Assembly (NCBI GenBank): GCA_040954595.2
Contig: CM082578.2
Span: forward strand, 1,160,831 to 1,224,830
DNA: 64,000 bases
Direction of reading: 5' to 3'
From: Balanoglossus misakiensis
Taxonomy: Eukaryota > Animalia > Hemichordata
The translations under genes were made by a program, and so were the position numbers. Within the stretch, counting starts at the first letter, position 1. The number at the start of each line of letters is the position of its first letter. A model generated the notes under the pieces. It did no database searches, was not told where the DNA came from, and saw only the letters and a list, made by a program, of their open reading frames with translations. Of this stretch, positions 16,770 through 49,724 are shown piece by piece.

Positions 16770-16925
16770 TGCATGTATGTATGTATGTATGTATGTATGT
16801 ATGTATGTATGTATGTATGTATGTATGTATGTATGTATGTATGTATGTATGTATGCATGCATGCATGCATGCATGCATGTATGTATGTATGTATGTATGT
16901 ATGTATGTATGTATGTATGTATGTA
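16770..16925. repeat. (TATG)n microsatellite
   Basis: Directly visible. Confidence 0.97.
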
Positions 16926-21794: not shown

Positions 21795-24700
21795 AATTAA
21801 AGCTGCAAGCAGCATTGTCCGGGCCCAAGCTCTATTATCTGATCTGATTATAAGATATGCACATAATTAATGAGTAGAAACATAATGCTGTGTTTTATCC
21901 CATGAAATATCAAGGTTATATCTGTTTGGTGCTGATATAGTGTTAAGTAGGTCAAAGGTCACCCAGGGGTCACCCAAAATTTTGGCAGAACATTTTAACC
22001 CATAGTGGTCCATGTCCAACAAAAGCCAGACCTCTAGCCCTTTTGGTTAGCCCGGAATTAGGTATGCACATAAATAATGAGTAAAGCAGGTGTCACAGGT
22101 GACCCAAAACTTTGGCTTTTAATTATGGCCCTATGCCTCCAAACGCCAAGGCTGTATCTGCTGTGGATGTCGAGATATGCAAAAGTAGGTCAAAGGTCAC
22201 CCGAGGTCACCCAACATTCGGGCAAAATATTTTGACCCCATACTTGTCCATGTCCAACAAAAACCAAACCTCTAGCTCTATTGGTTCGCCCGTAATTAGC
22301 TATGCACATAATTAATGAGGTCAGCTGAGGTCAAAGGGGTCATGGAAAGTAGCAAAATATTTTGATCACACACTAATCCACATGCATCAAAAACCAAATG
22401 TCTAGCCCTATTGGTTAGCCTGTAATTAGATATGCAGAAAAATGATGCATCAAAAGTAGGTCAAAGGTCATTGCCAAAATTACCAAAATATTTAAAGCTA
22501 ATTCTTGTCATATGATGATTCATATCCATAAAAAGAATTTCTGTGCTATCAATTTTTAGGCTAGAAAGGGAATTTTTACTTTTTAATCGTTTTTCACAAA
22601 ATCCAATATGGCCGCCATAATCTTCGACCAATCACATTCCTCTTCGCAAACTTGATAGACATATGTTTAATGACCACACACACCAAATCTTGTGACTCAG
22701 TTATCGCCGGTTCTTGAGAAGAAGATTTTTGAAATTTTACTAGGGTTTTTCGAAAATCCAATATGGCCGCCTTAATCTTCGACAAATCACAATGATCTTC
22801 GCAAACTTGATAGACCTCAGTTTGGTGACCACATACCCCAAACCGCGTGACTCGGTTATCGCCGGTTCTGGAGAAGAAGATTTTTGAAATTTTGACCAGA
22901 TTTCAGAAAAACAACTGTAGCAAAAAATCTGCAACATTGATAGCAAAATATCCAATTACAAAAATGATGGGCAGAAGGTACACTACCAGCACACCAAATC
23001 TGAAGTAAATCTGACTTGTAGTTTCTGAGATCTGAGATTTGCATTTTTTCAGAAAATCCAATATGGCCGCCATGTCACGTGACTAATTAAAAATTCAAGA
23101 GTTCAATGCACGACTACCCATTGACCTTGACCACTGTAGCAAGTTTGAGAAGTGTACCTGCAGCGGTGTCTGAGATCTAGAGCGACAAAGAAATGACACA
23201 AGAATAAAGAAAGAAAGAAAGAAAGATTAAAGCTGCAAGCAGCATTGTCCGGGCCCAAGCTCTATTATCTGATCTGATTATTAGATATGCACATAATTAA
23301 TGAGTAGAAACATAATGCTGTGTTTTATCCCATGAAATATCAAGTTTATATCTATGTTTGGTGTTGATATAGTGTTAAGTAGGTCAAATGTCACCCAGAG
23401 GTAACCCACAATTTGGGCAGAAAATTTTGACCCATAGTGGTCCAAGTCCAACAAAAACCAGATCTCTAGCCCTTTTGGTTAGCCCGGAATTAGGTATGCA
23501 CATAAATAATGAGTTAAGCAGGTGTCACAGGTGACCAAAAACTTTGGCTTTTCATTATGGCCCCATACCTCCAAACGCCAAGGCTGTATCTGCTGTGGAT
23601 GTCAAGATATGCAAAAGTAGGTCAAAGGTCACCCGAGGTCACCCAACATTTGGGCAAAATATTTTGACCCCATATTGGTCCATGTATAACAAAAACAAAA
23701 TCTCTATGTCTATTGGTTCATCTGTAATTAGGTATGTGCATATTTAATGAGGTCAGCAGAGGTCAAAGGGGTCATGAAAAGTATCAAATTTTTTTGATCA
23801 CATACAAATCCACATACATCAAAAACCAAACTTATAGCCCTATTGGTTAGCCTGGAATTAGATATGCAGAAAAATGATGCGTCAAAAGTAGGTCAAAGGT
23901 CATTGTCAAAATTACCAAAATATTTACAGCTTATTCTTGTCATATGATGATTCATATCCTTGAAAAGAATTTCTGTGCTATCAATTTTTAGGCAAGAAAG
24001 GGAATTTTTACTTTTTAATCGTTTTTCACAACATCCAATATGGCCGCCATAATCTTCGACCAATCACATTCCTCTTCGCAAACTTGATAGACATCTGTTT
24101 AATGACCACACACACCAAATCTTGTGACTCAGTTATTGCCGGTTCTTGAGAAGAAGATTTTTGAAATTTTACTAGGGTTTTTCGAAAATCCAATATGGCC
24201 GCCAAAATCTTCGACCAATCACAATGATCTTCGCAAACTTGATAGACATCAGGTAGGTGACCACATACACCAAACCCTGTGTCTCGGTTATTGCCGGTTC
24301 TGGAGAAGAAGATTTTTGAAATTTAAGCCAGATTTCAGAAAAAAAATTGTAGCAAAAAACTGCAACTTTGTCAGCATAATTTCCAATTACAAAAATGATG
24401 GGCAGAAGGTAGTCTACCAGCATGCCAAATTTGAAGTCGATCTGACTTGTAGTTTCTGAGATCTGAGATTTGCATTTTTTTAGAAAATCCAAGATGGCTG
24501 CCAGGTCACGTGACTTATTAAAAATTCAAGGGTTCAATGCACGACTACTCATTGACCTTGACCACTGTAGCAAGTTTCAGAAGTGTACCTGCAGCGGTGT
24601 CTGAGATCTCGTGGGTCAAAGAATTGACACAAGAATAAAGAAAGAAAGAAAGAAAGAAAGTAAAATTCCAACGAAACCAATACGGGCCCAAGCCTGGCTT

Positions 24701-27163
24701 GGCTTGGGCCCGTAATTAAAGCTGCAAGCAGCATTGTCGGGCCCAAGCGCTGATCCGGTATTATATATGCACAGTATGAATGAGAAGAAACAGAATGCTC
24801 TATCAGGTGTTTTATATCATGACATAACAAGGACGTATGTATTTTTCCTGCTGAAATAGTGTAAAGTAGGTCAAACGTCACCTGAGGTCACCCAACATTT
24901 GGGCAAAATTTATTGACCCATACTGTTCCATGTCCGACAAGAACTAAAACTCTAGTTCTATTGGTTCGTCTGTAATTAGGTATGTGCATATTTAATGAGG
25001 TCAGCAGGTGTCACAGGTGACCCAAAAATGTGGCTTTACATTTTGGTCCCATCCTGCCAAATGCCATGGCAGTATCTGCTCTGGATGCTGAGATATGCGA
25101 AAGTAGGTCAAAGGTCAACAAAGGTCACCCAACATTTGGGCAAAAAATTTTGATCCCATACAGGTCCATGTCCAACAAAAACCAAACCTCTAGCTCTATT
25201 GGTTCGCCTGTAATTAGCTATGCACATAATTAATGAGGTCAGCAGAGGTCAAAGGGGTCATGAAAAGTAGCAAAATATTTTGATCACACACTAATCCACA
25301 TTCATCAAAAACCAAACGTCTTGCCTTATAGATTAGCCTGGAATTAGATATGCAGAAATAATGACGCGTGATAAGTAGGTCAAAGGTCATGTGAAAAATC
25401 GCCAAAAAATTGTAACATATTTTAGTCACATGACGATTGATATCCATAAAAAGAATTTGTATGCTATGAATTTTTAGACTAGAAAAAGGAATTTCAATTT
25501 GTCACTGCTTTTTACAAAATCCAATATGGCCGCCATAATCTTCGACCAATCACAATGCTCTTTGCAAACTTGATAGACATCAGTGTAGTGACCATACTCC
25601 CCAAATCTTGCAACTCAGTCATCGCCCGTTCTGGAGAAGAAGATTTTTGGAGTTTAACTATGGTTTTTCAAAAATCCAATATGGCCGCCATAATCTCCGA
25701 CCAATCACAATGATCTTCGCAAACTTGATAGACATCAGTTAGGTGACCACATACCCCAAACCCCGTGTCTCGGTTATCGCCGGTTCTGGAGAAGAAGATT
25801 TTTGAAATTTAAGCCAGATTTCAGAAAAAAAATTGTAGCAAAAAAACTGCAACATTGACAGCAAAATTTCCAATTACAAAAATGATGGGTAGAAGGTAGT
25901 CTACCTGCATGCCAAATTTGAAGTCGATCTGACTTGTAGTTTCTGAGATCTGAGATTTGCATTTTTTCAGAAAATCCAATATGGCCGCCAGGTCACGTGA
26001 CTAATTAAGTATTCACAAGTCACTGCACATCTACTCATTGACCTTGACCACTGTAGCAAGTTTGAGAAGTGTACCTGCAGCGGTGTCTGAGATCTCGTTG
26101 CCCAAAGAATTGACACAAGAATAAAGAAAGACGGAAAGAAAGAATTAAAGCTGCAAGCAGCATTGTCGGGCCCAAGCGCTGATCTTGAATTATATATGCA
26201 CAGTATGAATGAGAAGAAACAGAATTTTCTATCGCATGTATTATCTCATGACATAACAAGGACTTATGTATTTTTGCTGCTGAAATAGAGTAAAGTAGGT
26301 CAAAGGTCACCTGAGGTCACCCAACATTTGGGCAAAAAAATTTGACCCTTGCTGGGCCATGTCCAACAAAAACCAAAACTCTAGCTCTATTGGTTCGCGT
26401 GTAATTAGGTATGTGCATATTTAATGAGGTCAGCAGGTGTCACAGGTGACCCAAAAATTTGGCTTTACATTTAGGTCCCATCCTGCCAAATGCCAAGGCT
26501 GTATCTGCTCTGGATGTTGAGATATGTGAAAGTAGGTCAAAAGTCACCAGAGGTCACCCAACATTTGGGCAAAAAATTTTGAACCCATACTGGTCCATGT
26601 TCAACAAAAACCAAAGCTCTAGCTCTATTGGTTCGCCTGTAATTAGCTATGCACATAATTAATGAGGTAAGCAGAGGTCAAAGGTGTCATGGAAAGTAGC
26701 AAAATATTTTGATCAAACACTAATCCACAAGCATCAAAAACCAAACGTCTAGCCCTATAGGTTAGCCTGGAATTAGATATGCAGAAATAATAACGCGTGA
26801 TAAGTAGGTCAAAGGTCATGTGAAAAATCGCCAAAAAATTGTAACATATCTTAGTCACCTGACGATTGATATCCATAAAAAGAATTTGTATGCTATCAAT
26901 TTTAGACTAGAAAAAGGAATTTCAATTTTTCGATGCTTTTTACAAATTCCAATATGGCCGCCATAATCTTCGACCAATCACAATGCTCTTTGCAAACTTG
27001 ATAGACATCAGTGTAGTGACCATACTCCCCGAATCTTGTGACTCGATTATCGCCCGTTCTGGAGAAGAAGATTTTTGGAGTTTAACTATAGTTTTTCGAA
27101 AATCCAATATGGCCGCCATAATCTTCGACCAATCACAATGATCTTCGCAAACTTGATAGACCT

Positions 27164-27623
27164 TAGTCTCGGTTACCCAGACGCCTTTGCTTCTTCCGAT
27201 GCTCTCCAGAAAAAGGGTCTGGGGAAATGCTATTGAAAGCTATGTAAAACAAAATGGCCGATGTCAGGATTTTGATCATCGCCTGATTGGCTGAGCTGTC
27301 AGTATGACCCGGGTCACTGACTCTCGACAATGTGTGATTATTTGTCGTATCTTCATATCAAGAGACCGGTACTTGTTGGTTGATGCGAAAGGCAAAAGGC
27401 GTCCTCTGTTAGCATTGTTAGAGAAATTATATGAAATATCTTTGGTAGACGATTGTCGAAACTATTGCAGTGACCCGGGTCATACTGACAGCTCAGCCAA
27501 TCAGGCGATGATCAAAATCCTGACATCGGCCATTTTGTTTTACAAAGCTTTCAATAGCATTTCCCCAGACCCTTTTTCTGGAGAGCATCGGAAGAAGCAA
27601 AGGCGTCTGGGTAACCGAGACTA
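27164..27623. mobile_element. 460-bp foldback MITE, TAG...CTA ends, 9-bp TSD (AcademH- or MuDR-like non-autonomous)
   Basis: 156-bp TIRs (27164-27319 / 27468-27623, one mismatch seen); TSD gatagacct at 27155-27163 and 27624-27632; sister HINE copies show the empty site. Confidence 0.9.
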
Positions 27624-30600
27624 GATAGACCTCAGTTAGGTGACCACATACCCCAAACCGCGTGACTCGGTTATCGCCGGTTCTGGAGAAGAAGATTTTT
27701 GACATCTTGACCAGATTTCAGAAAAACAACTGTAGCAAAAAAACTGCAACATTGACAGCAAAATATCCAATTACAAAAATGATGGGCAGAAGGTACACTA
27801 CCAGCACACCAAATCTGAAGTAAATCTGACTTGTAGTTTCTGAGATCTGAGATTTGCATTTTTTCAGAAAATCCAATATGGCCGCCAGGTCACGTGACTA
27901 ATTAAGTATTCACAAGTCACTGCACATCTACTCATTGACCTTGGCCACTGTAGCAAGTTTGAGCAGTGTACCTGCAGTAGTTTCAGAGATTTAGTTGGCC
28001 GAAGAATTGACACAAGAATAAAGAATGAAAAATTCCAACGAAACCAATAGGGCCCAAGCGCTTGCGCGCGCTTGGGCCCTAAAAATTCCAACGAAACCAA
28101 TAGGGCCCAAGCGCTTGCGTGCGCTTGGGCCCTAATTAAAGCTGCAAGCAGCATTGTCCGGGCCCAAGCTCTATTATCTGATCAGATTATTAGATATGCA
28201 CATAATTAATGAGTAGAAACATAATGCTGTGTTTTATCCCATGAAATATCAAGGTTATATCTATGTTTGGTGCTGATATAGTGTTAAGTAGGTCAAAGGT
28301 CATCTGAGGTCACCCAAAATTTGGGCAGAAAATTTTGACCCATAGTGGTCCATGTCCAACAAAAACCAGGCCTCTAGCCCTTTTGGTTCATCTGTAATTA
28401 GGTATGCACATATTTAATGAGGTCAGCAGAGGTCAAAGGGGTCATGAAAAGTAGCGAAATTTTTTGATCACATACAAATCCACATACATCAAAAACCAAA
28501 ATGATAGCCCTATAGGTTAGCCTGGAATTAGATATGCAGAAAAAACGATGTGTCAAAAGTAGGTCAAAGGTCATTGCCAAAATTACCAAAATATTTGGGG
28601 TAGGTCCTGGCAGGGGTGATACCAATGTGCACAAAAATCAGAACTCTGGTACATTTAGAACATGTAGTATGAGCTATATATGCATACATGCATGTTCTTA
28701 AAAAAGTAGGTCAAAGGTCATGTGAAAATTGCCAAAAAATTTGCAACATATTCTAGTCATATGACGACTCATATCCACAAAAAGAATTTGTATGCTATCT
28801 ATTTTTAGACTAGAAAAATGATTTCTTAATTTTCACTGGTTTTTACAAAATCCAATATGGCTGCCATAATCTTCGACCAATCACAACGCTCTTCGCAAAC
28901 TTGATAGACATCAGTTAGGTGATGTCATACCCTAAATCCCATGACTCGGTTATTGCCGGTTCTGGAGAAGAAGATTTTTGAAGATTTTACTGTACTTTTT
29001 GGAAAATCCAATATGGCGGCCAAAGTCATGTGACCGCTCAGGATTTTATTGTCAAACTTTGAAGGGCAGAGGACATGTGTACCATACACCAAATTTGAAC
29101 TTGATTGGCCCTGTGGTTTTTGAGAAGAAGCCATTTAAAGATTTTCAGAAAATCCAATATGGCCGCCAGGTCACGTGACTAATAAAATATTCACAAGCCA
29201 CTGCACATCTACTCATTGACCTTGACCACTGTAGCAAGTTTGAGAAGTGTACCTGTAGCCGTTTCAGAGATCTAGGAGAGCAAAGATTGACATAAGAATA
29301 AAGAAAGATTAAAGCTGCAAGCAGCATTGTCCGGGCCCAAGCTTTATTATCTGATCTGATATTAGATATGCACATAATTAATGAGAAGAAACATAATGCT
29401 GTGTTTATCCCATGAAATATCAAGGTTATATCTATGTTTGGTGCTGATATAGTGTTAAGTAGGTCAAAGGTCACCCAGAGGTCACCCACAATTTGGGCAG
29501 AAAATTTTGACCCATAGTGGTCCATGTCCATCAAAAACCAGACCTTTAGGCCTTTTGGTTAGCACGGAATTAGGTATGCACATAAATAATGAGTTGAGCA
29601 GGGGTCACAGGTGACCCAAAACTTTGGCTTTTCATTATGGCCCCATACCTCCAAATGCCAAGGCTGTATCTGCTGTGGATTTCGAGATATGCAAAAGTAG
29701 GTCAAAGGTCACAAGAGGTCACCCAACATTTGGGCAAAATATTTTTACCCCATACTGGTCCATGTATAACAAAAACAAAACTCTAGGTCTATTGGTTAAT
29801 CTGTAATTAGGTATGTGCATATTTAATGAGGTCAGCAGAGGTCAAAGGGGTCATGAAAAGTAGCAAAAAAAATTTATCACATACAAATCCACATACATCA
29901 AAAACCAAACTTATAGCCCTATTGGGTAGCCTGGAATTAGATATGCAGAAAAATGATGCGTCAAAAGTAGGTCAAAGGTCATTGCCAAAATTACCAAAAT
30001 ATTTATAGCTTATTCTTGTCATATGATGATTCATATCCATAAAAAGAATTTTTGTGCTATCAATTTTTAGGCTAGAAAAGGAATTTTTACTTTTTAATCG
30101 TTTTTCAAAAAATCCAATATGGCCGCCATAATCTTCGACCAATCACATTCCCCTTCGCAAACTTGATAGACATCTGTTTAATGACCACACACACCAAATC
30201 CTGTGACTCGGTTATCACCGGTTCTTGAGAAGAAGATTTTTGAAATTTTACAAGGGTTTTTCGAAAATCCAATATGGCCGCCAAAATCTTCGACCAATCA
30301 CAATGATCTTCGCGAACTTGATAGACATCAGTTAGGTGACCCCATACCCCAAACCGCGTGACTCGGTTATCACCGGTTCTGGAGAAGAAGATTTTTGAAA
30401 TTTAAACCAGATTTCAGAAAAAAAATTGTAGCAAAAAAACTGCAACATTGACAGCAAAATATCCAATTACAAAAATGATGGGTAGAAGGTAGACTACCTG
30501 CACACCAAATTTGAAGTCGATCTGACTTGTAGTTTCTGAGATCTGAGATTTGCATTTTTTCAGAAAATCCAATATGGCCGCCAGGTCACGTGACTAATTA

Positions 30601-33600
30601 AAAATTCACAGGTTCAATGCACATCTACTAATTGACCTTGACCACTGTAGCAAGTTTGAGAAGTGTACCTGCAGCGGTGTCTGAGATCTAGAGCGACAAA
30701 GAAATGACACAAGAATAAAGAAAGAAAGAAAGAAAGACTGAAAAATTCCAACGAAACCAATAGGGCCCAAGCCTGGCTTGGCTTGGGCCCTAAAAAACTC
30801 CAACGAAACCAATACGGGCCCAAGCCTGGCTTGGCTTGGGCCCGTAAAAAACCCCAACGAAACCAATAGGGCCCAAGCGCTGGTATGCGCTTGGGCCCTA
30901 AAGATTAAAGCTGCGAGCAGCATTGTCGGGCCCAAGCGCTGATCTTGAATTATATATGCACAGTATGAATGAGAAGAAACAGAATTTTCTATCGGTTGTA
31001 TTATCTCATGACATAACAAGGATGTGTGTATTTTTGCTGCTGAAATAGGGTGAAGTAGGTCAAAGGTCACCTGAGGTCACCCAACATTTGGGCAATTTTT
31101 TTTACCCATACTGGTCCATGTCCAACAAAAACCAAAACTCTAGCTCTATTGGTTCGGATGTAATTAGGTATGTGCATATTTAATGAGGTCAGCAGGTGTT
31201 ACAGGTGACCCAAAAATGTGGCTTTACATTTTGGTCCCATCCTACCAAATGCCATGGCTGTATCTGCTCTAGATGCTGAGATATGCGAAAGTAGGTCAAA
31301 GGTCACCAGAGGTCACCCAACATTTGGGCAAAAAATGGTGATCCCATACTGGTCCATGTCCAACAAAAACCAAAGCTCTAGCTCTATCGGTGTGCCTGAA
31401 ATTAGCTATGCACATAATTAATGAGGTCAGCAGAGGTCAAAGGGGTCATGAAAAGTAGCAAAATATTTTGATCACACACTAATTCACATTCATCAAAAAC
31501 CAAACGTCTAGCCATATAGGTTAGCCTGGAATTAGATATGCAGAAATAATAACGCGTGATAGGTAGGTCAAAGGTCATGTGAAAAATCGCCAAAAAATTG
31601 TAACATATTTTAGTCACATGACGATTGATATCCATTAAAAGAATTTGTATGCTATCAATTTTTAGACTAGAAAAAGGATTTTCAATTTTTCGCTGCTTTT
31701 TACAAAATCCAATATGGCCGCCATAATCTTTGACCAATCAAAATGCTCTTTGCAAACGTGATAGACATCAGTGTAGTGACCATACTCCCCGAATCTTGCG
31801 ACTCAGTCATCGCCCGTTCTGGAGAAGAAGATTTTTGGAGTTTAACTATGGTTTTTCGAAAATCCAATATGGCCGCCATAATCTTCGACCAATCACAATG
31901 ATCTTCGCAAACTTGATAGACATCAGTTAGGTGACCAAACACCCTAAACCGCGTGTCTCGGTTATCACCGGTTCTGGAGAAGAAGATTTTTGAAATTTAA
32001 GCCAGATTTCAGAAAAAAAATTGTAGCAAAAAACTGCAACATTGACAGCAAAATTTCCAATTACAAAAATGATGGGTAAAAGGTAGTCTACCTGCATGCC
32101 AAATTTGAAGTCGATCTGACTTGTAGTTTCTGAGATCTGAGATTTGCATTTTTTCAGAAAATCCAATATGGCCGCCAAGTCACGTGACTAATTAAGTATT
32201 CACAAATCACTGCACATCTACTCATTGACCTTGACCACTGTAGCAAGTTTGAGCAGTGTACCTGCAGTAGTTTCTGAGATTTAGTTGGCCGAAGAATTGA
32301 CAGGAGAATAAAGAAAGAAAGAAAGAAAGATTAAAGCTGCAAGCAGCATTGTCCGGGCCCAAGCTCTATTATCTGATCTGATTATTAGTTATGCACATTA
32401 TTAATGAGTAGAAACATAATGCTGTGTTTTATCCCATGAAATATCAAGGTTATATCTAGGTTTGGTGTTGACATAGTGTTAAGTAGGTCAAAGGTCACCC
32501 AGAGGTCACCCAAAATTTGGGCAGAATATTTTGACCCATAGTGGTCCATGTCCAACAAAAACCAGATCTCTAGCCCTTTTGGTTAGCCCGGAATATGGTA
32601 TGCACATAAATAATGAGTTAAGCAGGTGTCACAGGTGACCCAAAACTTTGGCTTTTCATTATGGCCCTATACCTCCAAACGCCAAGGCTGTATCTGCTGT
32701 GGATGTCAAGATATGCCAAAGTAGGTCAAAGGTCATCCGAGGTCATCCAACATTTGGGCAAAATATTTTGACCCCATACTGGTCCATGTATAACCAAAAC
32801 AAAATCTCTATGTCTATTGGTTCATCTGTAATTAGGTATGTGCATATTTAATGAGGTCAGCAGAGGTCAAAGGGGTCATGAAAAGTATCAAATTTTTTTG
32901 ATCACATACAAATCCACATACATCAAAAACCAAACTTATAGCCCTATTGATTAGCCTGGAATTAGATATGCAGAAAAATGATGCGTCAAAAGTAGGTCAA
33001 AGGTCACTGCCAAAATTACCAAAATATTTATAGCTTATTCTTGTTATATGATGATTCATATCCATGAAAAGAATTTCTGCGCTATCAATTTTTAGGCTAG
33101 AAAGGGAATCTTTACTTTTTAATCGTTTTTCACAAAATCCAATATGGCCGCCATAATCTCCGACCAATCACAATGATCTTCGCAAACTTGATAGACATCA
33201 GTTAGGTGACCACATACCCCAAACCCCGTGTCTCGATTATCACCGGTTCTGGAGAAGAAGATTTTTGAAATTTAAGCCAGATTTCAGAAAAAAAATTGTA
33301 GCAAAAAAACTGCAACATTGACAGCATAATTTCCAATTACAAAAATGATTGCCAGAAGGTAGTCTACCTGCACGCCAAATTTGAAGTCGATCTGACTTGT
33401 AGTTTCTGAGATCTGAGATTTGCATTTTTTCAGAAAATCCAAGATGGCCGCCAGGTCATGTGACTAATTAAAAATTCATGGGTTCAATGCACGACTACTC
33501 ATTGACCTTGACCACTGTAGCAAGTTTCAGAAGTGTACCTGCAGTGGTGTCTGAGATCTAGAGCGACAAAGAATTGACACAAGAATAAAGAAAGAAGAAA

Positions 33601-36600: not shown

Positions 36601-36710
36601 GTCCGATGGGACCAAAATTCAAAATGGCGGCAGTGCATGTGTGATCGATCGTGATCACTTCTGCTTGCAACTCCGTACTGGCATTATTTTGACAAAAAGA
36701 CTTCCTGAAA

Positions 36711-36884
36711 ATGGTTAATTGGTTTTGTGCGGCTCCGGAGTGTACTATCAGCTTGCGCAATAAAAGAAACGCCGCAAAATACCCAGGATTGGCAGACGTG
36801 ACATTTCATGCATTCCCAACTGAGAAACATCGCTGACTTCGCCAGCAGTGGATTTCCGTGTTACGTCGAAAGGATGCCCACTAG
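36711..36884 (+). pseudogene. THAP zinc-finger N-terminus of the transposase, truncated
   Basis: MVNWFCAAPECTISLRNKRNAAKYPGLADVTFHAFPTEKHR*LRQQWISVLRR: C-x4-C, FHxFP and W motifs; internal stop; no DDE domain follows. Confidence 0.75.
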
Positions 36885-37276
36885 TCACTTGGTGATTTTT
36901 GGAATATCAATACTTTGTGTGTGTTTGCGGTGATTTTTTGTTTGTCTTTATTCATAATCTCAATATTGTGTGCGTGCTTGCCTTGAGCGTGTTTCTGGTA
37001 GTGAGGCGAGTTTCGAATTTGAGACTGATCTCATGGTTTCTGGTAGCGTCGCTACGTGTTCCCTACACATACGCGCTCACACTCGCTGACGTTTACTCCA
37101 CACACAAAAAAGCAAAGCATTTATAATAGTTACATTTTTAGACATGTCATGAATTTTATTCAGCCAATAAAAATGTAACTGTGGCTGTACATGTGGTGTC
37201 TTTTTGATTCATATCTTAATGCTTTCACAAGAGTTTCACACATCACTCTACTAGTTTTAGAAGTACCATGAGTGAT

Positions 37277-37532
37277 GACTCTCACTTTTTGTTTCACTTT
37301 TGACATTAAAGAGGGTGTGACTGCAGAGAAGTGTGAAATACAAAATATGTTGTAAGGGAATATTGTATGTTAGTTGGTCAGTTGGTTAGTGAACTGGGGA
37401 ACTTGGTTTCGGTTAGTAGGTTAGTTGGTTAATGCAAACATTCCTTGATTCCCTTACAACATATTTTGTATTTGATCTCTCTACAGTCACAACCTCTTTG
37501 ACGTCATAAGTGAAACAAAAAGTGAGAGTCAC
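37277..37532. repeat. Foldback MITE inside the ISL2EU-like element
   Basis: gactctcactttttgtttcactt...aaatatgttgtaagggaat versus attcccttacaacatattt...aagtgaaacaaaaagtgagagtc, with a ttggttag-rich centre. Confidence 0.65.
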
Positions 37533-37603
37533 TTGTCTTGTAAAATAAAAGTAAACAATACTAAGCTATACCCTGGTTATCCTTTTCACTATCAACAACA
37601 GTT

Positions 37604-40450
37604 CTATGTACAACTGACAACAATGTTAGTTACAATAAAATCCTCATAAAATGTAGAAAGTTTAGCTTCAGTTGTTTTCCCAAACAATTCATCGAAATAT
37701 ATCCTCTCTATTGAAATGGCTTTTCTTGTGAATAACACAAAATCACACCATTGCAGTTTACAAGTAGCAAGTTGCATTTGTATTTGGGTATACCATTTTG
37801 ATGTCCTCCTCAAACACACTTTGCCATCTACATCCAAAAATACATGGTATTTGGGAACTCTAGGCTTGATATATCACATGGGAATATATTGCGGTGTTTG
37901 CTGGAACATTTGATTTCACACATTTAAAGCTGGCAATGATAGTGATTTTACTAGCTATATTGGAGAATCTGTATCAGAAGCTGATATTGATTTTATGTCA
38001 TCACTGACAGCTGATCAAAGAGATTATGAGGATTGGTATTTGTATAGACAAGGGAGTGTTACTGCCAGTATTGCACATGATATCCTTCACATGAAAGAAA
38101 CTCGGGATTTGAATGACTACATAGTCCAAAAAATTATGTCTGGCAGTCACAGGACAATACCTTCAACCCACATTGATTGTGGTATTAAACATGAACCTGT
38201 TGCTAAACATTTATATCATGAGCAATACAAAAAGTTGCACCGGAAAGTGAAATTTCAAGATGTTGGCTTAGTCATCAGTTCTGACAAGCCATATCTTAGT
38301 TCAAGTCCTGATGGGAGGGTATCATGGGAGGACATCAAATGGCACCTGGATAATAGTTGGACACAGTTGGTCTTGGTGTGTCAGGTTGAGACTTATCCTT
38401 TCTAATGTCAAGCTCATCTATTTCCATAGGAGTGGACTCTTTGCGGGGTTTATCCCACTTACAGGGAACATCAGTACTAACTTGAATATTTCTGTCTTTG
38501 TGGCGTCTATCGAAGTCGTTGATGCTAAACAACAATGCAACACAATGTTTGCATGTTCCATGCTCACTGTAAAAAAAATTCAGATACATGGTAAATGTTA
38601 ACGCATGATTGCAGCTTTTTTGTTTATGCCTCTCTGCAGTGACTGTCAAATGAAAACTGAGGTATTCAAACCTAAAACGTCAATGCATCAAATGGAGAAT
38701 GAAATCATATTAACTATTTTCAAATATTATCTAATTTTGCAAATCCTGATTTACAGTCCTCAACATCACTTTAAATTAGTCAACAGATACTGTTGGAAAA
38801 ACATAGACAATTCTGTCAGACTCTACTGACAGTTTTCTCATCCAAACACACAAATAAAGCAAACCGAACTAAAAAACAAATGTCAAAATACATGTATAAC
38901 CATGGTTATTTCAACCCACCATTTCTATGTACCTAGTCACACTGGTAGAACTAAAAGCCACGGTGGATTAAAATGATAAAATTTATATAAAAATTAAAGC
39001 TGCAAGCAGCATTGTCCGGGCCCAAGCTCTATTATCTGATCTGATGCTGATATAGTGTTAAGTAGGTCAAAGGTCACCCGAGGTCACCCAACATTTGGGC
39101 AAAATATTTTGACCCCATACTGGTCCATGTATAACAAAAACAAAACCTCTAGGTCTATTGGTTCATCATTAATTAGGTATGTACATATTTAATGAGGTCA
39201 GCAGAGGTCAAAGGGGTCATGAAAAGTAGCAAAATTTTTTGATCACATACAAATCCACACACATCAAAAACCAAACTTATAGCCCTATTGGTTAGCCTGG
39301 AATTAGATATGCAGAAAAATGATGCATCAAAAGTAGGTCAAAGGTCATTGCCAAAATTACCAAAATATTAATAGCTTATTCTTGTCATATGATGATTCAT
39401 ATCCATAAAAAGAATTTCTGTGCTATCAATTTTTAGGCTAGAAAGGGAATTTTTACTTTTTAATCAGTTTTTCACAAAATCCAATATGGCCGCCATAATC
39501 TTCGACCAATCACATTCCCCTTTACAAACTTGATAGACATCTGTTTAATGACCACACACACCAAATCTTGTGACTCGGTTATCGCCGGTTCTTGAGAAGA
39601 AGATTTTTGAAATTTTACTAGGGTTTTTCGAAAATCCAATATGGCCGCCATAATCTTGGACCAATCACAATGATCTTCGCAAACTTGATAGACATCAGTT
39701 AAGTGACCACATACCCCAAACCCCATGTCTCGGTTGTTACCGGTTCTGGAGAAGAAGATTTTTGAAAATTAAGCCAGATTTCAGAAAAAAAAGTGTAGCA
39801 AAAAAACTGCAACATTGACAGCATAATTTCCAATTACAAAAATGATGGGTAGAAGGTAGACTACCTGCACACCAAATTTGAAGTCGATCTGACTTGTAGT
39901 TTCTGAGATCTGAGATTTGCATTTTTTCAGAAAATCCAATATGGCCGCCAGGTCACGTGACTAATTAAAAATTCAAGGGTTCAATGCACGACTACTCATT
40001 GACCTTGACCACTGTAGCAAGTTTCAGAAGTGTACCTGCAGCGGTGTCTGAGATCTAGAGCGACAAAGAATTGACAGAAGAATAAAGAAAGAAAGAAAGA
40101 AAGAAAGAAAAACCCCAACGAAACCAATAGGGCCCAAGCGCTGGTATGCGCTTGGGCCCTAAAAATACTTACGCAACACAATTACAGCCTCAGAAGAGAA
40201 TGGAGGTCGCTGACCCACTCGGTGATCGTCGCCGGATCAGGCAAAGTGATGTAGAATTGCTTTTGGCTGGGTCGCGATTGTCTGCTACCGTCCGCCTTTT
40301 TTTGCTCGAAATTTCCTGGTCACCAGGCTCTAGTGGCCGAACGTCCAGTTCTATAGCTAACTCCACTACCTGAATTAGTCTATCTTTCCAGGTATTACAA
40401 CAAGTTATACCTCTTTCCGACAAAACTTTCTCAGGTCAGGCACTTATGTA
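37604..40450 (-). pseudogene. SWIM + YqaJ (lambda-exonuclease) gene remnant, spliced, internally inverted and interrupted
   Basis: N-terminal piece at 40190-40423 (-); CKHCVALL...STDVPCKW at 38335-38575 (-); TADQ..W...R.GSVTAS..GIKHEP..GLVIS..PYLSSSPDG at 37995-38325 (+); EIKC and WYTQIQMQLATCKLQWCDFV at 37604-37920 (-). Confidence 0.8.
38992..40160 (-). mobile_element. Single HINE copy with both ends (internally deleted), inserted in an intron of the YqaJ remnant
   Basis: Tail aattaaagctgc at 38992, head ending gggccct at 40160, unrelated A-rich flanks on both sides, next to a minus-strand gtaagt donor. Confidence 0.85.
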
Positions 40451-43400
40451 AACATGACCTCATTCAGGACCGGAAGTGCAGTGATCCCAACTCGCACGCC
40501 CTCAGGCGACAAGAGTCTATGAACTTTCTACTTTATTGAGAACTCGGAACCCGCGAATTAAAGCTGCGAGCAGCATTGTCAGGCCCAAGCGCTGATCTTG
40601 AATTATATATGCACAGTATGAATGAGAAGAAACAGAATTTTTTATCGGATGTATTATCTCATGACATAACAAGGATGTGTGTATTTTTGCTGCTGAAATA
40701 AGGTGAAGTAGGTCAAAGGTCACCTGAGGTCACCCACAATTTGGGCAATTTTTTTTACCCATACTGGTCCATGTCCAACAAAAACCAAAACTCTAGCTCT
40801 ATTGGTTCGCCTGTAATTAGGTATGTGCATATTTAATGAGGTCAGCAGATGTTACAGGTGACCCAAAAATGTGGCTTTACATTTTGGTCCCATCCTACCA
40901 AATGCCATGGCTGTATCTGCTCTGGATGCTTAGATATGCGAAAGTAGGTCAAAGGTCACCAGAGGTCACCCAACATTTGGGCAAAAAATTTTGATCCCAT
41001 ACTGGTCCATGTCCAACAAAAACCAAACCTCTAGCTCTATTGGTTCGCCTGTAATTAGCTATGCACATAATTAATGAGGTCAGCTGAGGTCAAAGGGGTC
41101 ATGAAAAGTAGCAAAATATTTTGATCACACACTAATCCACATTCATCAAAAACCAAACGTCTAGCCCTATAGGTTAGCCTGGAATTAGATATGCAGAAAT
41201 AATAATGCGTGATAAGTAGGTCAAAGGTCATGTGAAAAATCGCCAAAAAATTGTATAATATTTTAGTCACATGACGATTGATATCCATAAAAAGAATTTG
41301 TATGCTATCAATTTTTAGACTAGAAAAAGGAATTTCAATTTTTCACTGCTTTTTACAAAATCCAATATGGCCGCCATAATCTTCGACCAATCACAATGCT
41401 CTTTGCAAACTTGATAGACATCAGTGTTGTGACCATACTCCCCGAATCTTGCGACTCAGTTATCGCCCGTTCTGGAGAAGAAGATTTTTGCAGTTTTACT
41501 ATGGTTTTTCGAAAATCCAATATGGCCGCCATAATCTTCGACCAATCACAATGCTTCTTATCAAACTTGATAGACATCAGTTAGGTGACCACATACCCCA
41601 AACCGCGTGACTCGGTTATCACCGGTTCTGGAGAAGAAGATTTTTGAAATTTAAGCCAGATTTCAGAAATAAAATTGTAGCAAAAAAACTGCAACACTGT
41701 AGCAAAATTTCCAATTACAAAAATGATGGGTAGAAGGTAGTCTACCTGCATGCCAAATTTGAAGACGATCTGACTTGTAGTTTCTGAGATCTGAGATTTG
41801 AATTTTTTCAGAAAATCCAATATGGCTGCCAGGTCACGTGACTAATTAAGTATTCACAAGTCACTGCACATCTACTCATAGACCTTGACCACTGTACCAA
41901 GTTTGAGCAGTGTACCTGCTGTAGTTTCAGAGATTTAGTTGGCCGAAGAATTGACACAAGAATAAAGAAAGAATTAAAGCTGCGAGCAGCATTGTCGGGC
42001 CCAAGCGCTGATCTTGAATTATATATGCACAGTGTGAATGAGAAGAAACAGAATTTTCTATCGGATGTATTATCTCATGACATAACAAGGATGTGTGTAT
42101 TTTTGCTGCTGAAATAGGGTGAAGTAGGTCAAAGGTCACCTGAGGTCACCTAACATTTGGGCAAATTTTTTTGACCCATACTGGTCCATGTCCAACAAAA
42201 ACCAAAACTCTAGCTCTATTGGTTCGTCTGTAATTAGGTATGTGCATATTTAATGAGGTCAGCAGATGTCACAGGTGACCCAAAAATGTGGCTTTACATT
42301 TTGGTCCCATCCTACCAAATGCCATGGCTGTATCTGCTCTGGATGCTGAGATATGCGAAAGTAGGTCAAAGGTCACCAGAGGTCACCCAACATTTGGACA
42401 AAAATTTTTGATCCCATACTGGTCCATGTCCAACAAAAACCAAACCTCTAGCTCTATTGGTTCGCCTGTAATTAGCTATGCACATAATTAATGAGGTCAG
42501 CAGAGGTCAAAGGGGTCATGAAAAGTAGCAAAATATTTTGATCACACACTAATCCACATGCATCAAAAACCAAAAGTCTAGCCCTATAGGTTAGCCTGGA
42601 ATTAGATATGCAGAAATAATAACGCGTGATAAGTAGGTCAAAGGTCATGTGAAAAATCGCCAAAAATTTGTAACATATTTTAGTCATATGATGATTGATA
42701 TCCATGAAAAGAATTTGTATACTGTCAATTTTTAGACTAGGAAAAGGAATTTCAATTTTTCACTGCTTTTTACAAAATCCAATATGGCCGCCATAATCTT
42801 CGACCAATCACAATGTTCTTTGCAATCTTGCTAGACATCAGTATTGTGACCATACTCCCTGAATCTTGCGACTCAGTTATCGCCTATTCTGGAGAAGAAG
42901 ATTTTTGCAGTTTTACTATGGTTTTTCGAAAATCCAATATGGCCGCCATAATCTTCGACCAATCACAATGCTTCTTATCAAACTTGATAGACATCAGTTA
43001 GGTGACCACATACCCCAAACCGCGTCACTCGGTTATCACCGGTTCTGGAGAAGAAGATTTTTGAAATTTAAGCCAGATTTCAGAAAAAAAATTGTAGCAA
43101 AAAAACTGCAACATTTACAGCAAAATATCCAATTACAAAAATGATGGGTAGAAGGTAGACTACCTGCACACCAAATTTGAAGTCGATCTGACTTGTAGTT
43201 TCTGAGATCTGAGATTTGCATTTTTTCAGAAAATCCAATATGGCCGCCATGTCACGTGACTAATTAAAAATTCAAGAGTTCAATGCACGACGACCCATTG
43301 ACCTTGACCTCTGTAGCAAGTTTGAGAAGTGTACCTGCAGCGGTGTCTGAGATCTAGAGTGACAAAGAAATGACACAAGAATAAAGAAAGAAAGAAAGAC

Positions 43401-46400
43401 AGAAAAACCCCAACGAAACCAATAGGGCCCAAGCGCTGGTATGCGCTTGGGCCCTAATTAAAGCTGCAAGCAGCATTGTCGGGCCCAAGCGCTGATCCAG
43501 TATTATATATGCACAGTATGAATGAGAAGAAACAGAATGCTCTATCAGGTGTTTTATCTCATGACATAACAAGGACGTATGTATTTTTCCTGCTGAAATA
43601 GAGTAAAGTAGGTCAAAGGTCACCTGAGGTCACCAAACATTTGGGCAAAATTTATTGACCCATACTGTTCCATGTCCAACAATAACTAAAACTCTAGTTC
43701 TATTGGTTCGCCTGTAATTAGGTATGTGCATATTTAATGAGGTCAGCAGGTGTCACAGGTGACTCAAAAATTTGGCTTTACATTTTGGTCCCATCCTGTC
43801 AAATGCCAAGGCTGTATCTGCCCTGGATGCTGAGATATGCGAAAGTAGGTCAAAGGTCACCAAAGGTCACCCAATATTTGGGCAACAAATTTTGACCCCA
43901 TATTGGTCCATGTCCAACAAAAACCAAACCTCTAGCTCTATTGCTTCGCCTGTAATTAGCTATGCACATAATTAATGAGGTCAGCAGAGGTCAAAGGGGT
44001 CATGAAAAGTAGCAAAATATTTTGATCACACACTAATCCACATGCATCAAAAACCAAAAGTCTAGCCCTATAGGTTAGCCTGGAATTAGATATGCTGAAA
44101 TAATAACGCGTGATAAGTAGGTCAAAGGTCATGTGAAAAATCGTCAAAAAATTGTAACATATTTTAGTCACATGATGATTGATATCCATAAAAAGAATTG
44201 CTATGCTATCAATTTTTAGACTAGAAAAAGGAATTTCAATTTTTCACTGCGTTTTACAAAATCTAATATGGCCGCCATAATCTTCGACCAATCACAATGC
44301 TCTTTGCAAACTTGATAGACATCAGTGTAGTGACCGTACTACCCAAATCTTGCCACTCAGTCATCGCCCGTTCTGGAGAATAAGATTTTTGGAGTTTAAC
44401 TGTGTTTTTTTGAAAATCCAATATGGCCGCCATAATCTTCGACCAATCACAATGATCTTCGCAAACTTGATAGACATCAGTTCGGTGACCGCATACCCAA
44501 AACCCCGTGTCTCAGTTATCACCGGTTCTGGAGAAGAAGATTTTTGAAATTTAAGCCAGATTTCAGAAAAACAATTGTAGCAAAAAAACTGCAACATTGA
44601 CAGCAAAATATCCAATTACAAAAATGATGGGTAGAAGGTAGTCTACCTGCATGCCAAATTTGAAGTCGATCTGACTTGTAGTTTCTGAGATCTGAGATTT
44701 GCATTTTTTCAGAAAATCCAATATGGCCGCCAGGTCACGTGACTAATTAAGTATTCACAAGTCACTGCACATCTACTCATTGACCTTGACCACTGTAGCA
44801 AGTTTGAGCAGTGTACCTGCAGTAGTTTCAGAGATTTAGTTGGCCGAAGAATTGACACAAGAATAAAGAATGAAAAATTCCAACGAAACCAATAGGGCCC
44901 AAGCGCTAAAGAAAGAAAGATTAAAGCTGCGAGCAGCATTGTCGGGCCCAAGCGCTGATCTTGAATTATATATGCACAGTATGAATGAGAAGAAACAGAA
45001 TTTTCTATCGGATGTATTATCTCATGACATAACAAGGATGTGTGTATTTTTGCTGCTGAAATAGGGTGAAGTAGGTCAAAGGTCACCTAAGGTCACCCAA
45101 CATTTGGGCAATTTTTTTTTACCCATACTGGTCCATGTCCAACAAAAACCAAAACTCCAGCTCTTTTGGTTCGGATGTAATTAGGTATGTGCATATTTAA
45201 TGAGGTCAGCAGGTGTCACAGGTGACCCAAACATGTGGCTTTACATTCTGGTCCCATCCTACAAATTGCCATGGCTGTATCTGCTCTGGATGCTGAGATA
45301 TGCGAAAGTAGGTCAAAGGTCACCAGAGGTCACCAAACATTTGGGCAAAAAAATTTGATCCCATACTGGTCCATGTCCAACAAAAACCAAACCTCTAGCT
45401 CTATTGGTTCGCCTGTAATTAGATATGCACATAATTAATGAGGTCAGCAGAGGTCAAAGGGGTCATGAAAAGTAGCAAAATGTTTTGATCACACACTAAT
45501 CCACATGCATCAAAAACCAAAAGTCTAGCCCTATAGGTTAGCCTGGAATTAGATATGCAGAAATAATAACGCGTGATAAGTAGGTCAAAGGTCATGTGAA
45601 AAATCGCCAAATATTTGTAACATATTTTAGTCATATGATGATTGATATCCATGAAAAGAATTTGTATGCTGTCAATTTTTAGACTAGGAAAAGGAATTTC
45701 AATTTTTCACTGCTTTTTACAAAATCCAATATGGCCGCCATAATCTTCGACCAATCACAATGCTCTTTGCAAACTTGATAGACATCAGTGTTGTGACCAT
45801 AATCCCCGAATCTTGCGACTCAGTTATCGCTCCTTCTGGAGAAGAAGATTTTTGCAGTTTTACTATGGTTTTTCGAAAATCCAATATGGCCGCCATAATC
45901 TTCGACCAATCACAATGCTTCTTATCAATCTTGATAGACATCAGTTAGGTGACCACATACCCCAAACCGCATCACTCGGTTATCACCGGTTCTGGAGAAG
46001 AAGATTTTTGAAATTTAAGCCAGATTTCAGAAAAAAAATTGTAGCAAAAAAGCTGCAACATTGACAGCAAAATATCCAATTACAAAAATGATGGGTAGAA
46101 GGTAGACTACCTGCACACCAAATTTGAAGTCGATCTGACTTGTAGTTTCTGAGATCTGAGATTTGCATTTTTTCAGAAAATCCAATATGGCCGCCATGTC
46201 ACGTGACTAATTAAAAATTCAAGAGTTCAATGCACGACTACCCATTGACCTTGACCACTGTATCAAGTTTGAGAAGTGTACCTGCAGCGGTGTCTGAGAT
46301 CTAGAGCGACAAAGAAATGACACAAGAATAAAGAAAGAAAGAAAGACAGAATTAAAGCTGCAAGCAGCATTGTCCGGGCCCAAGCTCTATTATCTGATCA

Positions 46401-49205
46401 GATTATTAGATATGCACATAAGTAATGAGTAGAAACATAATGCTGTTTTATCCCATGAATTATCAAGGTTATATCTATGTTTGGTGCTGATATAGTGTTA
46501 AGTAGGTCAGAGGTCACCCAGAGGTCACCCACAGTTTGGGCAGAAAATTTTGACCCATAGTGGTCCATGTCCAACAAAAACCAGACCTCTAGCCCTTTTG
46601 GTTAGCCCGGAATTAGGTATGCACATAAATAATGAGTTAAGCAGGTGTCACAGGTGACCCAAAACTTTGGCTTTTCATTATGGCCCCATACCTCCAAACG
46701 CCAAGGCTGTATCTGCTGTGGATGTCGAGATATGCAAAAGTAGGTCAAAGGTCACCCGAGGTCACCCAACATTTGGGAAATTTTTTTGACCCAATACTGG
46801 TCAATGTCCAACAGAAACCAAGCCTCTAGGTCTATTGGTTCATATGTAATTAGGTATGCACATATTTAATGAGGTCAGCAGAGGTCAAAGGGGTCATGAA
46901 AAGTACCAAAATTTTTTGATCACATACAAATCCACATACATCAAAAACCAAACTTATAGCCCTATTGGTTAGCCTGGAATTAGATATGCAGAAAATTGAT
47001 GCGTCAAAAGTAGGTCAAAGGTCATTGCCAAAATTACCAAAATATTTATAGCTTATTCTTGTTATATGATGATTCATATCCATAAAAAGAATTTCTGTGC
47101 TATCAATTTTTAGGCTAGAAAGGGAATTTTTACTTTTTAATCGTTTTTCACAAAATCCAATATGGCCGCCATAATCTTCGACCAATCACATTCCTCTTCG
47201 CAAACTTGATAGACATCTGTGGAATGACCACACACACAAAATCTTGTGACTCGGTTATCGCCGGTTCTCGAAAAGAAGATTTTTGAAATTTTACTAGGGT
47301 TTTTCGAAAATCCAATATGGCCGCCATAATCTTCGACCAATCACAATAATCTTCGCAAACTTGATAGACATCAGTTAGGTGACCAAATACCCCAAACCCC
47401 ATGTCTCGGTTATCACCGGTTCTGGAGAAGAAGATTTTTGAAATTTAAGCCAGATTTCAGAAAAAAAATTGTAGCAAAAAAACTGCAACATTGACAGCAT
47501 AATTTCCAATTACAAAAATATTTGACAGAAGGTAGTCTACCTGCACGCCAAATTTGAAGTCGATCTGACTTGTAGTTTCTGAGATCTGAGATTTGCATTT
47601 TTTCAGAAAATCCAAGATGGCCGCCAGGTCATGTGACTAATTAAAAATTCATGGGTTCAATGCACGACTACTCATTGACCTCGACCACTGTAGCAAGTTT
47701 GAGAACTGTACCTGCAGTGGTGTCTGAGATCTAGAGCGACAAAGAAATGACAGAAGAATAAAGAAAGAAAGAAAGATTAAAGCTGCAAGCAGCATTGTCC
47801 GGGCCCAAGCTCTATTATCTGATCTGATTATTAGATATGCACATAATTAATGAGTAGAAACATAATGCTGTGTTTTATCCCATGAAATATCAAGGTTATA
47901 TCTATATTTGGTGTTGATATAGTTTTAAGTAGGTCAAGGTCACCCAGAGGTCACCCACAATTTGGGCAGAAAATTTTGACCCATAGTGGTCCATGTCCAA
48001 CAAAAACCAGACCTCTAGCCCTTTTGGTTAGCCCGGAATTAGGTATGCACATAAATAATGAGTTAAGCAGGTGTCACAGGTGACCCAAAACTTTGGCTTT
48101 TCATTATGGCCCCATACCTCCAAACGCCAAGGCTGTATCTGCTATGGATGTCGAGATATGCAAAAGTAGGTCAAAGGTCACCCGAGGTCACCCAACATTT
48201 GGGCAAAATATTTTGACCCCATACTGGTCCATGTATAACAAAAACAAAACCTCTAGGTCTATTGGTTCATCGTTAATTAGGTATGTGCATATTTAATGAG
48301 GTCAGCAGAGGTCAAAGGGGTCATGAAAAGTAGCAACATTTTTTGATCACATACAAATCCACATACATCAAAAACCAAACTTATAGCCCCATTGGTTAGC
48401 CTGGAACTAGATATGCAGAAAAATGATGCGTCAAAAGTAGGTCAAAGGTCATTGCCAAAATTACCAAAATATTTATAGCTTATTCTTGGCATATGATGAT
48501 TCATATCCATAAAAAGAATTTCTGTGCTATTAATTTTTAGGCAAGAAAGGGAATTTTTACTTTTTAATCGTTTTTCACAAAATCCAATATGGCCGCCATA
48601 ATCTTCGACCAATCACATTCCTCTTCGCAAACTTGATAGACATCTGTTTACTGACCACACACACCAAATCTTGTGACTCAGTTATCGCCGGTTCTTGAGA
48701 AGAAGATTTTTGAAATTTTACTAGGGTTTTTCGAAGATCCAATATGGCCGCCATAATCTTCGACCAATCACAATGATCTTCGCAAACTTGATAGACCTCA
48801 GTTTGGTGACCACATATCCCAAACCGCGTGACTCGGTTATCGTCGGTTCTGGAGAAGAAGATTTTTGAAATTTTGACCAGATTTCAGAAAAACAACTGTA
48901 GCAAAAAAACTGCAACATTGACAGCAAAATATCCAATTACAAAAATGATGGGCAGAAGGTACACTACCCGCACACCAAATCTGAAGTAAATCTGACATGT
49001 AGTTTCTGAGATCTGAGATTTGCATTTTTTCAGAAAATCCAATATGGCCGCCATGTCACGTGACTAATTTAAAATTCAAGAGTTCAATGCACGACTACCC
49101 ATTGCCCTTGACCACTGTAGCAAGTTTGAGAAGTGTACCTGCAGCGGTGTCTGAGATCTAGAGCGACAAAGAAATGACAGAAGAATAAAGAAAGAAGAAA
49201 GACAG

Positions 49206-49686
49206 AAAAACCCCAACGAAACCAATAGGGCCCAAGCGCTGGTATGCGCTTGGGCCCTAAAAAACCCCAACGAAACCAATAGGGCCCAAGCGCTGGTATG
49301 CGCTTGGGCCCTAAAAACCCCAACGAAACCAATAGGGCCCAAGCGCTGGTATGCGCTTGGGCCCTAAAAAATTCCAACGAAACCAATAGGGCCCAAGCGC
49401 AAGCAAGCGCTTGGGCCCTAAAAAATTCCAACGAAACCAATAGGGCCCAAGCGCTTGCTTGCGCTTGGGCCCTAAAAAACCCCAACGAAACCAATAGGGC
49501 CCAAGCGCTGGCTTGCGCTTGGGCCCTAAAAAACCCCAACGAAACCAATAGGGCCCAAGCGCTTGCTTGCGCTTGGGCCCTAAAAACCCCAGTAATACCA
49601 ATAGGGCACAAGCCTGCTTGGCTTGTGCCCTAAAAAAACACAGTAAAACCAATAGGGCACAAGCGCCTGAGGGCGCTTGGTCCCCT
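49206..49686 (-). repeat. Stack of 9 HINE 5' hairpin heads (7 modern gggcccaagc, 2 older gggcacaagc)
   Basis: Units end at 49258, 49312, 49365, 49419, 49473, 49527, 49581, 49631, 49686. Confidence 0.92.
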
Positions 49687-49724
49687 AATCAAAAGCGGTT
49701 AATAACGGTCAGTCAACTCACGTC

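Follow-up and report, generated by a model that had tools for sequence, protein, structure and literature searches.

The window analyzed here is a 64,000-nucleotide stretch of the hemichordate Balanoglossus misakiensis (GenBank assembly GCA_040954595.2, contig CM082578.2, positions 1,160,831 to 1,224,830). Its positions 21797 to 49583 hold a block of non-coding transposable elements. This block appears to be a nest of 17 distinct elements of about 1.48 kb, all in one orientation, that was built by repeated, independent insertion of new copies into earlier ones, a reading to which a probability of roughly 80% is assigned. Serial self-insertion had been proposed in a preliminary description of the sequence. 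It is now supported by the reassembly of unit-length elements, the concordance of heads with distant bodies, the totals of divided A-runs, the lack of similarity between neighbors and an empty site without a target site duplication (TSD). The elements share a common anatomy, their heads and bodies pair in last-in-first-out order and their insertions fall at a fixed site.

Anatomy and class of the element

Read on the minus strand, the element begins with a 5' TT, followed by a hairpin of 12-14 bp (the head), 15 nt, a run of five T's, a (CTTT)n tract beside the head and a body of about 1.4 kb. Its 3' part (the tail) consists of a 10-bp subterminal inverted repeat (subTIR), a weak 4-bp stem and TTTAA. 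The 5' copy of the subTIR motif starts 3 nt in and is contained in the hairpin; the 3' copy lies 23-24 nt from the end in 20 of 20 tails, and the outer side of the tail is an A in every one of these. All four heads that were folded gave stems of 12-14 bp (z -5.5 to -7.3), and none of 200 shuffles was as good. The 3' stem-loop (4-bp stem, 4-nt loop) is part of the minimum free energy structure in two of three folded tails and is no better than shuffles; the motif is also kept in a related family from public contigs, where it is partly imposed by the search pattern. Internal tandem sub-repeats of 155 bp and 130 bp are present.

Two subfamilies, A and B, were recognized, with 92-97% identity within and about 85% between them. 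A third type (the copy at 28136) is about 76% identical and an old family about 71%. The 5' 400 bp or so assort independently of the remainder, and the bodies are mosaic between subfamilies. Judged from their ends, which are of the Helentron/Helitron2 type, these non-coding elements are likely HINE/Helitron2-like and of the rolling-circle type. The 48 open reading frames (ORFs) of at least 55 aa that were screened from the non-array parts of the window gave no Pfam match at E<=0.001; no Rep/helicase(/endonuclease) partner was found, and no genome-wide search was made.

Balance of heads and tails

The preliminary description had treated tails as opening and heads as closing brackets and had counted 17 of each. 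A scripted parse recovers all of them between 21797 and 49583, the head ending at 44907 being partial. It also reproduces the depth profile: from 21795 the depth is never negative, it is 0 at 30899, reaches 7 at 47776 and returns to 0 at 49581. The point of zero depth at 30899 still lies within an outer host, because a microsatellite remnant follows it. As had been described, the head-less bodies (nine of nine) end within the (AAAG)n tract or within the A-run that precedes the head, and both leftover microsatellite pieces after inner heads were found.

Exact balance holds for this sub-block only. The whole nest spans 8118-49689, and a scripted scan of both strands finds 20 tails and 25 heads, on one strand only; the depth drops to -3 at 21794 and to -5 at the end. 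The additional parts on the left are a tail at 8118, a copy at 9322-10807, a copy broken at about 11535, a tail-less body at about 19400-21500 and five heads at 21504-21796. On the right there are two older-type heads (49584-49689). Position 21795 is not the start of the structure, and the block forms the balanced portion of a larger nest. This enclosing nest would be older, and its left part would have lost tails. The old tail at 8118 and the old heads at 49584-49689 have a subTIR variant in common, and the oldest family therefore forms the outer brackets. Balance alone is weak evidence, because 17 tails and 17 heads in random order are balanced with a chance of 1/18 and because the boundaries were chosen; it is the pairing tests that carry the case.

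Pairing of heads with distant bodies

Excision of inner copies was expected to restore intact elements, and it does so for 11 copies of 1479-1489 bp as printed. A twelfth copy (33604) amounts to 1485 bp when its two pieces are joined and a terminal inverted repeat (TIR) transposon is excluded. The remaining five measure 1938 bp (26145, which carries a miniature inverted-repeat transposable element, MITE), 1452 bp (43458, with half a head), 1327 bp (32331), 1227 bp (28136) and 1169 bp (38994). The copies at 32331 and 38994 are shortened by internal deletions, and that at 28136 is of the shorter diverged type.

Rules linking head and body were derived from eight intact copies and then applied to the nine split ones. 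The head loop type agrees with the body-end type in seven of seven scorable split hosts, two of the nine body ends having no rule. A pyrimidine tetramer agrees between head and body in six of seven, and the left and right halves of the divided A-run total 5 in eight of nine. Jointly permuted, these features gave P=2e-4 when all 9! pairings were considered and P=0.033 when only the last stack of six was; the reversed order scores 4, 5 and 5 versus 6, 5 and 5 for last-in-first-out. A feature-free distance correlation was added because the features of the rules had been picked by eye after the data were viewed. With windows of 60, 150 and 300 columns, body-end and head distances under last-in-first-out pairing correlate at r=0.53, 0.50 and 0.35 (P=0.003, 0.0006 and 0.023 over the nine split copies), and the corresponding values in intact copies are 0.56, 0.54 and 0.51. 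In this test, which omits the half-headed copy, last-in-first-out ties for the best among 720 orders of the last stack of six (P=2/720). Heads lying far from the bodies that the parse assigns to them match those bodies.

The same data bear on whether the block could be an ordinary macrosatellite that grew by unequal crossing-over, bodies having lost their heads by deletion and a 54-bp head unit having been amplified locally. In its favor, Tandem Repeats Finder does call the head stacks arrays of 53-54 bp, and the bodies are mosaic between subfamilies, but the unlike heads of a stack follow the order that the distant bodies predict. In addition, neighbors are no more alike than random pairs: the adjacent-copy distance is 0.1185 versus 0.1173 for shuffled copies (P=0.54), and the most alike pair of copies is 97.2% identical. 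No lag minimum that would indicate a higher-order period was found in the block. An ordinary macrosatellite is highly improbable. Head-tail junctions without a spacer, which look like the end-to-end junction of a circle, could also come from one or more rolling-circle concatemers inserted in a single event, and available portions of the literature attribute tandem Helitron arrays to concatemers (PMC5876387, PMC12628747). Here, identity between the partners at four tested zero-spacer junctions is only 77-92%, most of these partners belong to different subfamilies, and a concatemer would not give stacks of unlike heads; this origin is extremely improbable. The contention of the preliminary description that the array grew neither by unequal crossing-over nor as a single concatemer is upheld by these comparisons. 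Integration of circles by homologous recombination was considered for the head-tail joins and rejected, as it cannot give head stacks and as inspection of the mosaic map by eye showed no clear reciprocal chimeras.

A rather unlikely alternative accepts the nesting and supposes that it was partly block-wise, with composite units (several heads and one body, or sub-nests read through a 3' end) moving together. Such movement has been modelled for Fusarium and maize Helitrons (PMC5148889, PMC3288121, as far as their text is available), and elements with multiple 5' ends are reported in the former as transposed units. The five surplus heads on the left, and the presence of two old heads but a single old tail, would be explained in this way, as would head-microsatellite-head joins (49476 to 49197) that are present in contigs of the species and absent from the compared stretch. 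Within 21797-49583, however, each head has its matching body. The surplus on the left lies where one copy is broken, a body lacks its tail and 8 kb of unrelated DNA intervene, which points to deletion; the five missing tails were probably lost within the interruption at 11536-19400.

Insertion site and empty site

Thirteen of 16 nested insertions struck the same T-run, at 19-20 nt from the stem of the host hairpin; under the parse, one more lies at 22 nt and two at 31 nt. Four copies that were counted contain 18-23 runs of at least five A/T on both strands, and no insertion of the 16 was found in a host body or in reverse orientation. When 5' starts are measured from the subTIR motif, 20 of 23 within the nest lie 20-24 nt behind it, distances that move by 1 depending on the terminal T chosen. 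Fourteen of these start 20-22 nt behind a motif that is the 3' arm of a 5' hairpin (minus strand), and six start 23-24 nt behind a true 3' subTIR, exactly at the 3' end, one of them later split by the TIR transposon. The remaining three are in microsatellite. New copies had been suggested to insert just inside the 5' end of earlier copies or at their ends. The head-tail joins would be explained equally well if the T-run regenerated in the host, or a resident's 5' TT, had been used again.

Insertion without a TSD, also claimed earlier, is borne out by the empty site of the copy at 38994 and by the split A-runs described above. Public contigs from runs X1 (two contigs) and X2 (one contig) join 38990 to 40161, which is the empty form of this site, with no duplication beyond A's. 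X1 and X2 come from one sample, possibly the source individual; runs X4 and X5 have low depth and added no information. The empty-site contigs and the contigs of the host transposon itself have the same depth.

A search of public contigs with the tail pattern gave 57 3' ends in 56 loci, in animal-like DNA of metagenome assemblies. This related family, which we take to resemble a teleost repeat, shares only about 30 terminal bases with the nest element. Six of the 57 3' ends join a 5' head without a spacer (L002, L012, L025, L042, L048 and L055, of which L042 and L048 look like a single locus), and in L034 a 3-nt spacer separates the two. Three run into microsatellite and a head-less body (L029, L052 and L055), five others run into (TTA)n and the remainder look dispersed. 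In L002, two heads are stacked at a distance of 59 nt. The exact head pattern had no match in metagenome contigs, nor did the tail pattern in viral contigs. At L016 (963-1330), about 50 nt separate a related-family tail from a head in the opposite orientation, the sole inverted arrangement seen. A tail of the related repeat at L056:10001-10031 is in a contig labelled as a bacterial metagenome-assembled genome, which suggests host contamination of that assembly.

It is possible to suppose that residents are not recognized at all: the enzyme may prefer TTTT|T/C, as for Helitron-1N1_CRe, while the element happens to carry such a site in an open or tolerant locus. The site does fit this rule, taken from the available text of PMC3627910, when the element is read as T...T. 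For the copy at 38994 the target was an ordinary T-run of foreign DNA, and about 47 of the 57 3' ends of the related family are not shown inside another copy. Yet each copy offers 18-23 A/T runs and none of the 16 insertions used the body or the reverse orientation. The concentration of 13 of 16 at one run has a nominal P of about 1e-13 when any of 20 sites is allowed, the events being ascertained ones. Target preference without recognition of residents is considered unlikely.

Proposed mechanism

In the reading preferred here, a Rep/helicase acting in trans would mobilize the copies, and an incoming copy would enter a resident one at the T-run that lies 19-20 bases past the resident's 5' hairpin. 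Each insertion is predicted to push the host body away from the host head. Each arrival would carry a new landing site, and the nest would therefore feed itself. The enzyme may locate the site by binding the subTIR motif, which is also the 3' arm of the 5' hairpin, although this step is less certain; the incoming 5' end would then be joined 20-24 nt downstream of the motif, as at a true 3' end. It is tentatively suggested that the hairpin arm acts as a decoy of the 3' end, so that the transposase reads the 3' arm of a resident's 5' hairpin as a 3' subTIR and the lineage targets itself; we would put this at somewhat less than even odds. Precise joining of a 3' end to a 5' end has been observed with purified Helraiser (PMC5876387, in the available portion). 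By analogy, a joining of this kind at the 3' end of a resident, or at the arm that resembles one, would account for both types of junction.

Several observations weigh against serial self-insertion or parts of it. Across the whole nest, heads exceed tails by five. One A-run totals 6, one tetramer is mismatched, one of the five intact AGAG-type copies breaks the head rule, and the choice of rule features by eye, mentioned above, also counts here. Inner copies had been expected to be younger, but by private substitutions (three diverged or partial copies omitted) the host is more diverged than its guest in only five of 12 pairs, with a Spearman coefficient of 0.01. This test is weak because the source lineages differ; it is still a failed prediction. 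The absent age gradient fits a short burst from several source lineages, which does not make it support. The empty site has three extra A's versus two in the nest, and the heads of L002 are spaced at 26 nt versus 24 nt at the 3' end. No autonomous partner was found in a search confined to the window, and none of the nested blocks was seen to vary by presence/absence. Among the matches listed, contigs placed on 5500-9345 showed neither an empty allele of the whole nest nor a link from the old body to the old head; reads break at the microsatellite.

Target choice of Helitron-type elements is poorly known beyond a dinucleotide or T-run, and the readable order of this nest offers a concrete, testable rule. 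If the decoy proposal is true, a single rule (subTIR plus 20-24 nt) would yield both head stacks and zero-spacer head-tail joins. A eukaryotic HUH transposase would then have an integration rule anchored to a motif and, through stack growth, macrosatellite-sized arrays across animals would have a third route of origin. An array annotated as a satellite can record serial transposition, and the nest explains the origin of multi-headed elements. For a DNA transposon, targeting its own copies would amount to a safe-haven strategy; to our knowledge, such strategies have been familiar so far mainly from retrotransposons.

Parts of the nest

All copies and heads of the nest are on the minus strand. 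The outermost host (8118-9321) belongs to the older related family and is about 70-73% identical to modern copies; its tail has a GGGCACAAG-type subTIR and its body ends in a (GAA)n tract. Its left flank (8008-8117) is itself a very high-depth repeat. An intact modern copy of subfamily A (9322-10807) lies within the old host's microsatellite. It is followed, with no spacer to the preceding head, by a subfamily B copy (10808-11535) that is broken at about 11535.

The nest is then interrupted by about 8 kb of unrelated, repeat-rich DNA (11536-19400), in which no Pfam match at E<=0.001 was found among the ORFs screened and no terminal inverted repeat among the 25 longest of 367 pairs. Within this block, (TACA)n/(ATGT)n tracts lie inverted at 14588-14896 and 16769-16925, and 15237-15512 is a palindromic element that is found again at 1-87 and 2251-2414. 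A tail-less body (19400-21558) has diverged sub-repeats, a modern body from about 20221 and its own head. Next is a stack of four more heads (21559-21796) with a microsatellite remnant at 21666-21690; the tails of these heads are not in the window, except possibly that at 10808.

The balanced block begins with a host copy at 21797-30901 (body 21797-23226, head 30848-30901; 1484 bp reassembled) that has five copies inside. These are an intact copy at depth 2 (23227-24715), a split copy at depth 2 (24716-28135; body 24716-26144, head 28083-28135; 1482 bp), the intact MITE-carrying copy at depth 3 (26145-28082), a split copy of the third diverged type at depth 2 (28136-30847; about 76% identical to A and B; 1227 bp) and an intact copy at depth 3 (29309-30793). 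The MITE (27164-27623) is a fold-back element of 460 bp whose long inverted arms match at 155/170 positions. It has a target duplication of 9 bp, and from the length of that duplication it is presumably Mutator-like.

The second host, at block depth 1, extends over 30905-49583 (body 30905-32330, head 49530-49583; 1480 bp). Inside it, split copies follow at depth 2 (32331-49529; body 32331-33603, head 49476-49529; 1327 bp with an internal deletion) and depth 3 (33604-49475; body 33604-35034, head 49422-49475). An intact copy at depth 4 (35035-36516) has a 5' hairpin of -18.9 kcal/mol (z -7.3). A twice-split copy at depth 4 (40558-49421; pieces 40558-41973, 44910-44920 and 49368-49421; 1481 bp) contains an intact copy at depth 5 in its microsatellite (41974-43457), a copy at depth 5 with half its 5' hairpin deleted (43458-44909) and a split copy at depth 5 (44921-49367; body 44921-46351, head 49315-49367; 1484 bp). 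Within the last of these are a split copy at depth 6 (46352-49314; body 46352-47776, head 49261-49314; 1479 bp) and the innermost copy, intact at depth 7 (47777-49260). The two older-type hairpin heads (GGGCACAAG) at 49584-49689 match the subTIR of the 8118 tail and are the outer brackets.

The TIR DNA transposon (36518-40556) is located exactly at a head-tail junction, with a duplication of AT or AATT, both of which fit. It has a fragment of a YqaJ nuclease (Pfam match, E 9.6e-8) and, by eye, a THAP-like start near 36710, and we take it to be ISL2EU-like. The internally deleted copy at 38994-40162, whose empty site is in the public contigs, stands alone in an A/T-run of this transposon. The transposon split a head-tail junction and later received a copy of the element; therefore, the nest grew in more than one episode.

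Surroundings of the nest

On the minus strand, window positions 1-7900 contain exons of a large extracellular-protein gene with ephrin-receptor-like repeats and a pentraxin/LamG domain and, by eye, EGF-, HYR- and sushi-like pieces. The gene is presumably SVEP1-like. Its upstream exons were not found elsewhere in the window, and the pentraxin exon gave no homologue in a protein search. Contig depth over 5.5-8 kb is about 2400-3300 in X1 versus about 400-550 for the TIR transposon, which hints that the gene region itself is multi-copy. Directly to the right of the outermost head there is a broken ORF2 of a long interspersed nuclear element (49731-53040) with Pfam matches to endonuclease and reverse transcriptase. 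An 86/82-bp satellite occupies 54327-62602 and is interrupted at about 56702-58545 by a 1.85-kb element with 187-bp internal repeats and CAGCCCGAACGCA at both ends as a terminal inverted repeat.

Comparison with known systems

The comparisons below concern the available portions of the papers cited. The non-autonomous, HINE/DINE-1-like Helentrons described by Thomas, Vadnagara and Pritham (2014; PMC4067079) are likewise non-coding, with subTIRs, a 5' inverted repeat that encloses the subTIR, a 5' microsatellite, central repeats, a T-rich target, a variable number of T's and no TSD; their small 3' palindrome may correspond to the weak 3' stem of the nest element. The 3' subTIR of the nest element is 23-24 nt from the end, whereas that of HINE is at 38-60 bp, and no deep self-nests are described for HINE in that portion. 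Helitron2 (Bao and Jurka, 2013; PMC3627910) is similar in its asymmetric terminal inverted repeats (ATIRs) of about 10 bp, the 5' ATIR 0-2 nt from the end within a hairpin and the 3' ATIR 20-30 nt from the end, in its 5' T and in a target compatible with TTTT|T/C; self-targeting is not described in the same portion.

For arrays in general, the tandems formed by double insertion (McGurk and Barbash, 2018; PMC5932611) are similar in that they come from insertion-site preference and not from concatemers. Those tandems have host DNA, kept by the TSD, as their target and result in head-to-tail dimers, whereas the nest element brings a target of its own and yields a telescoped nest with no TSD. Nothing closer was found in the available parts of PMC12001565, PMC13085455, PMC12628747 and PMC10288648. 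Subscription papers, Repbase and supplements aside, the papers listed in literature searches describe no deep balanced Helitron nest, no fixed self-target site and none of these terminal motifs.

Self-insertion itself is already known as an idea. Chellapan et al. (2016; PMC5148889) proposed it as the source of the multiple 5' termini of Fusarium FoHeli, a Helitron2-type element with proposed insertion into the 5' end of other copies and short 5' duplications of 31-85 nt, and a triple case in Metarhizium is given in the same paper. HELIANO found two alternative left ends in a Xenopus HLE2 (PMC11417382). For maize Helitrons, nesting was proposed to account for multiple 5' and 3' termini (Dong et al., 2011; PMC3288121); these have Helitron1-type ends, and the portion available shows no fixed self-target site or balanced array. 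The evidence from FoHeli consists of multi-headed single elements and of two to three copies, with the mechanism left open (PMC5148889), unlike the nest described here, with 17 copies, a depth of 7, tested pairing and a fixed site at 19-20 nt. What is new, relative to the fungal and maize Helitrons, is the depth, the tested pairing and the fixed position.

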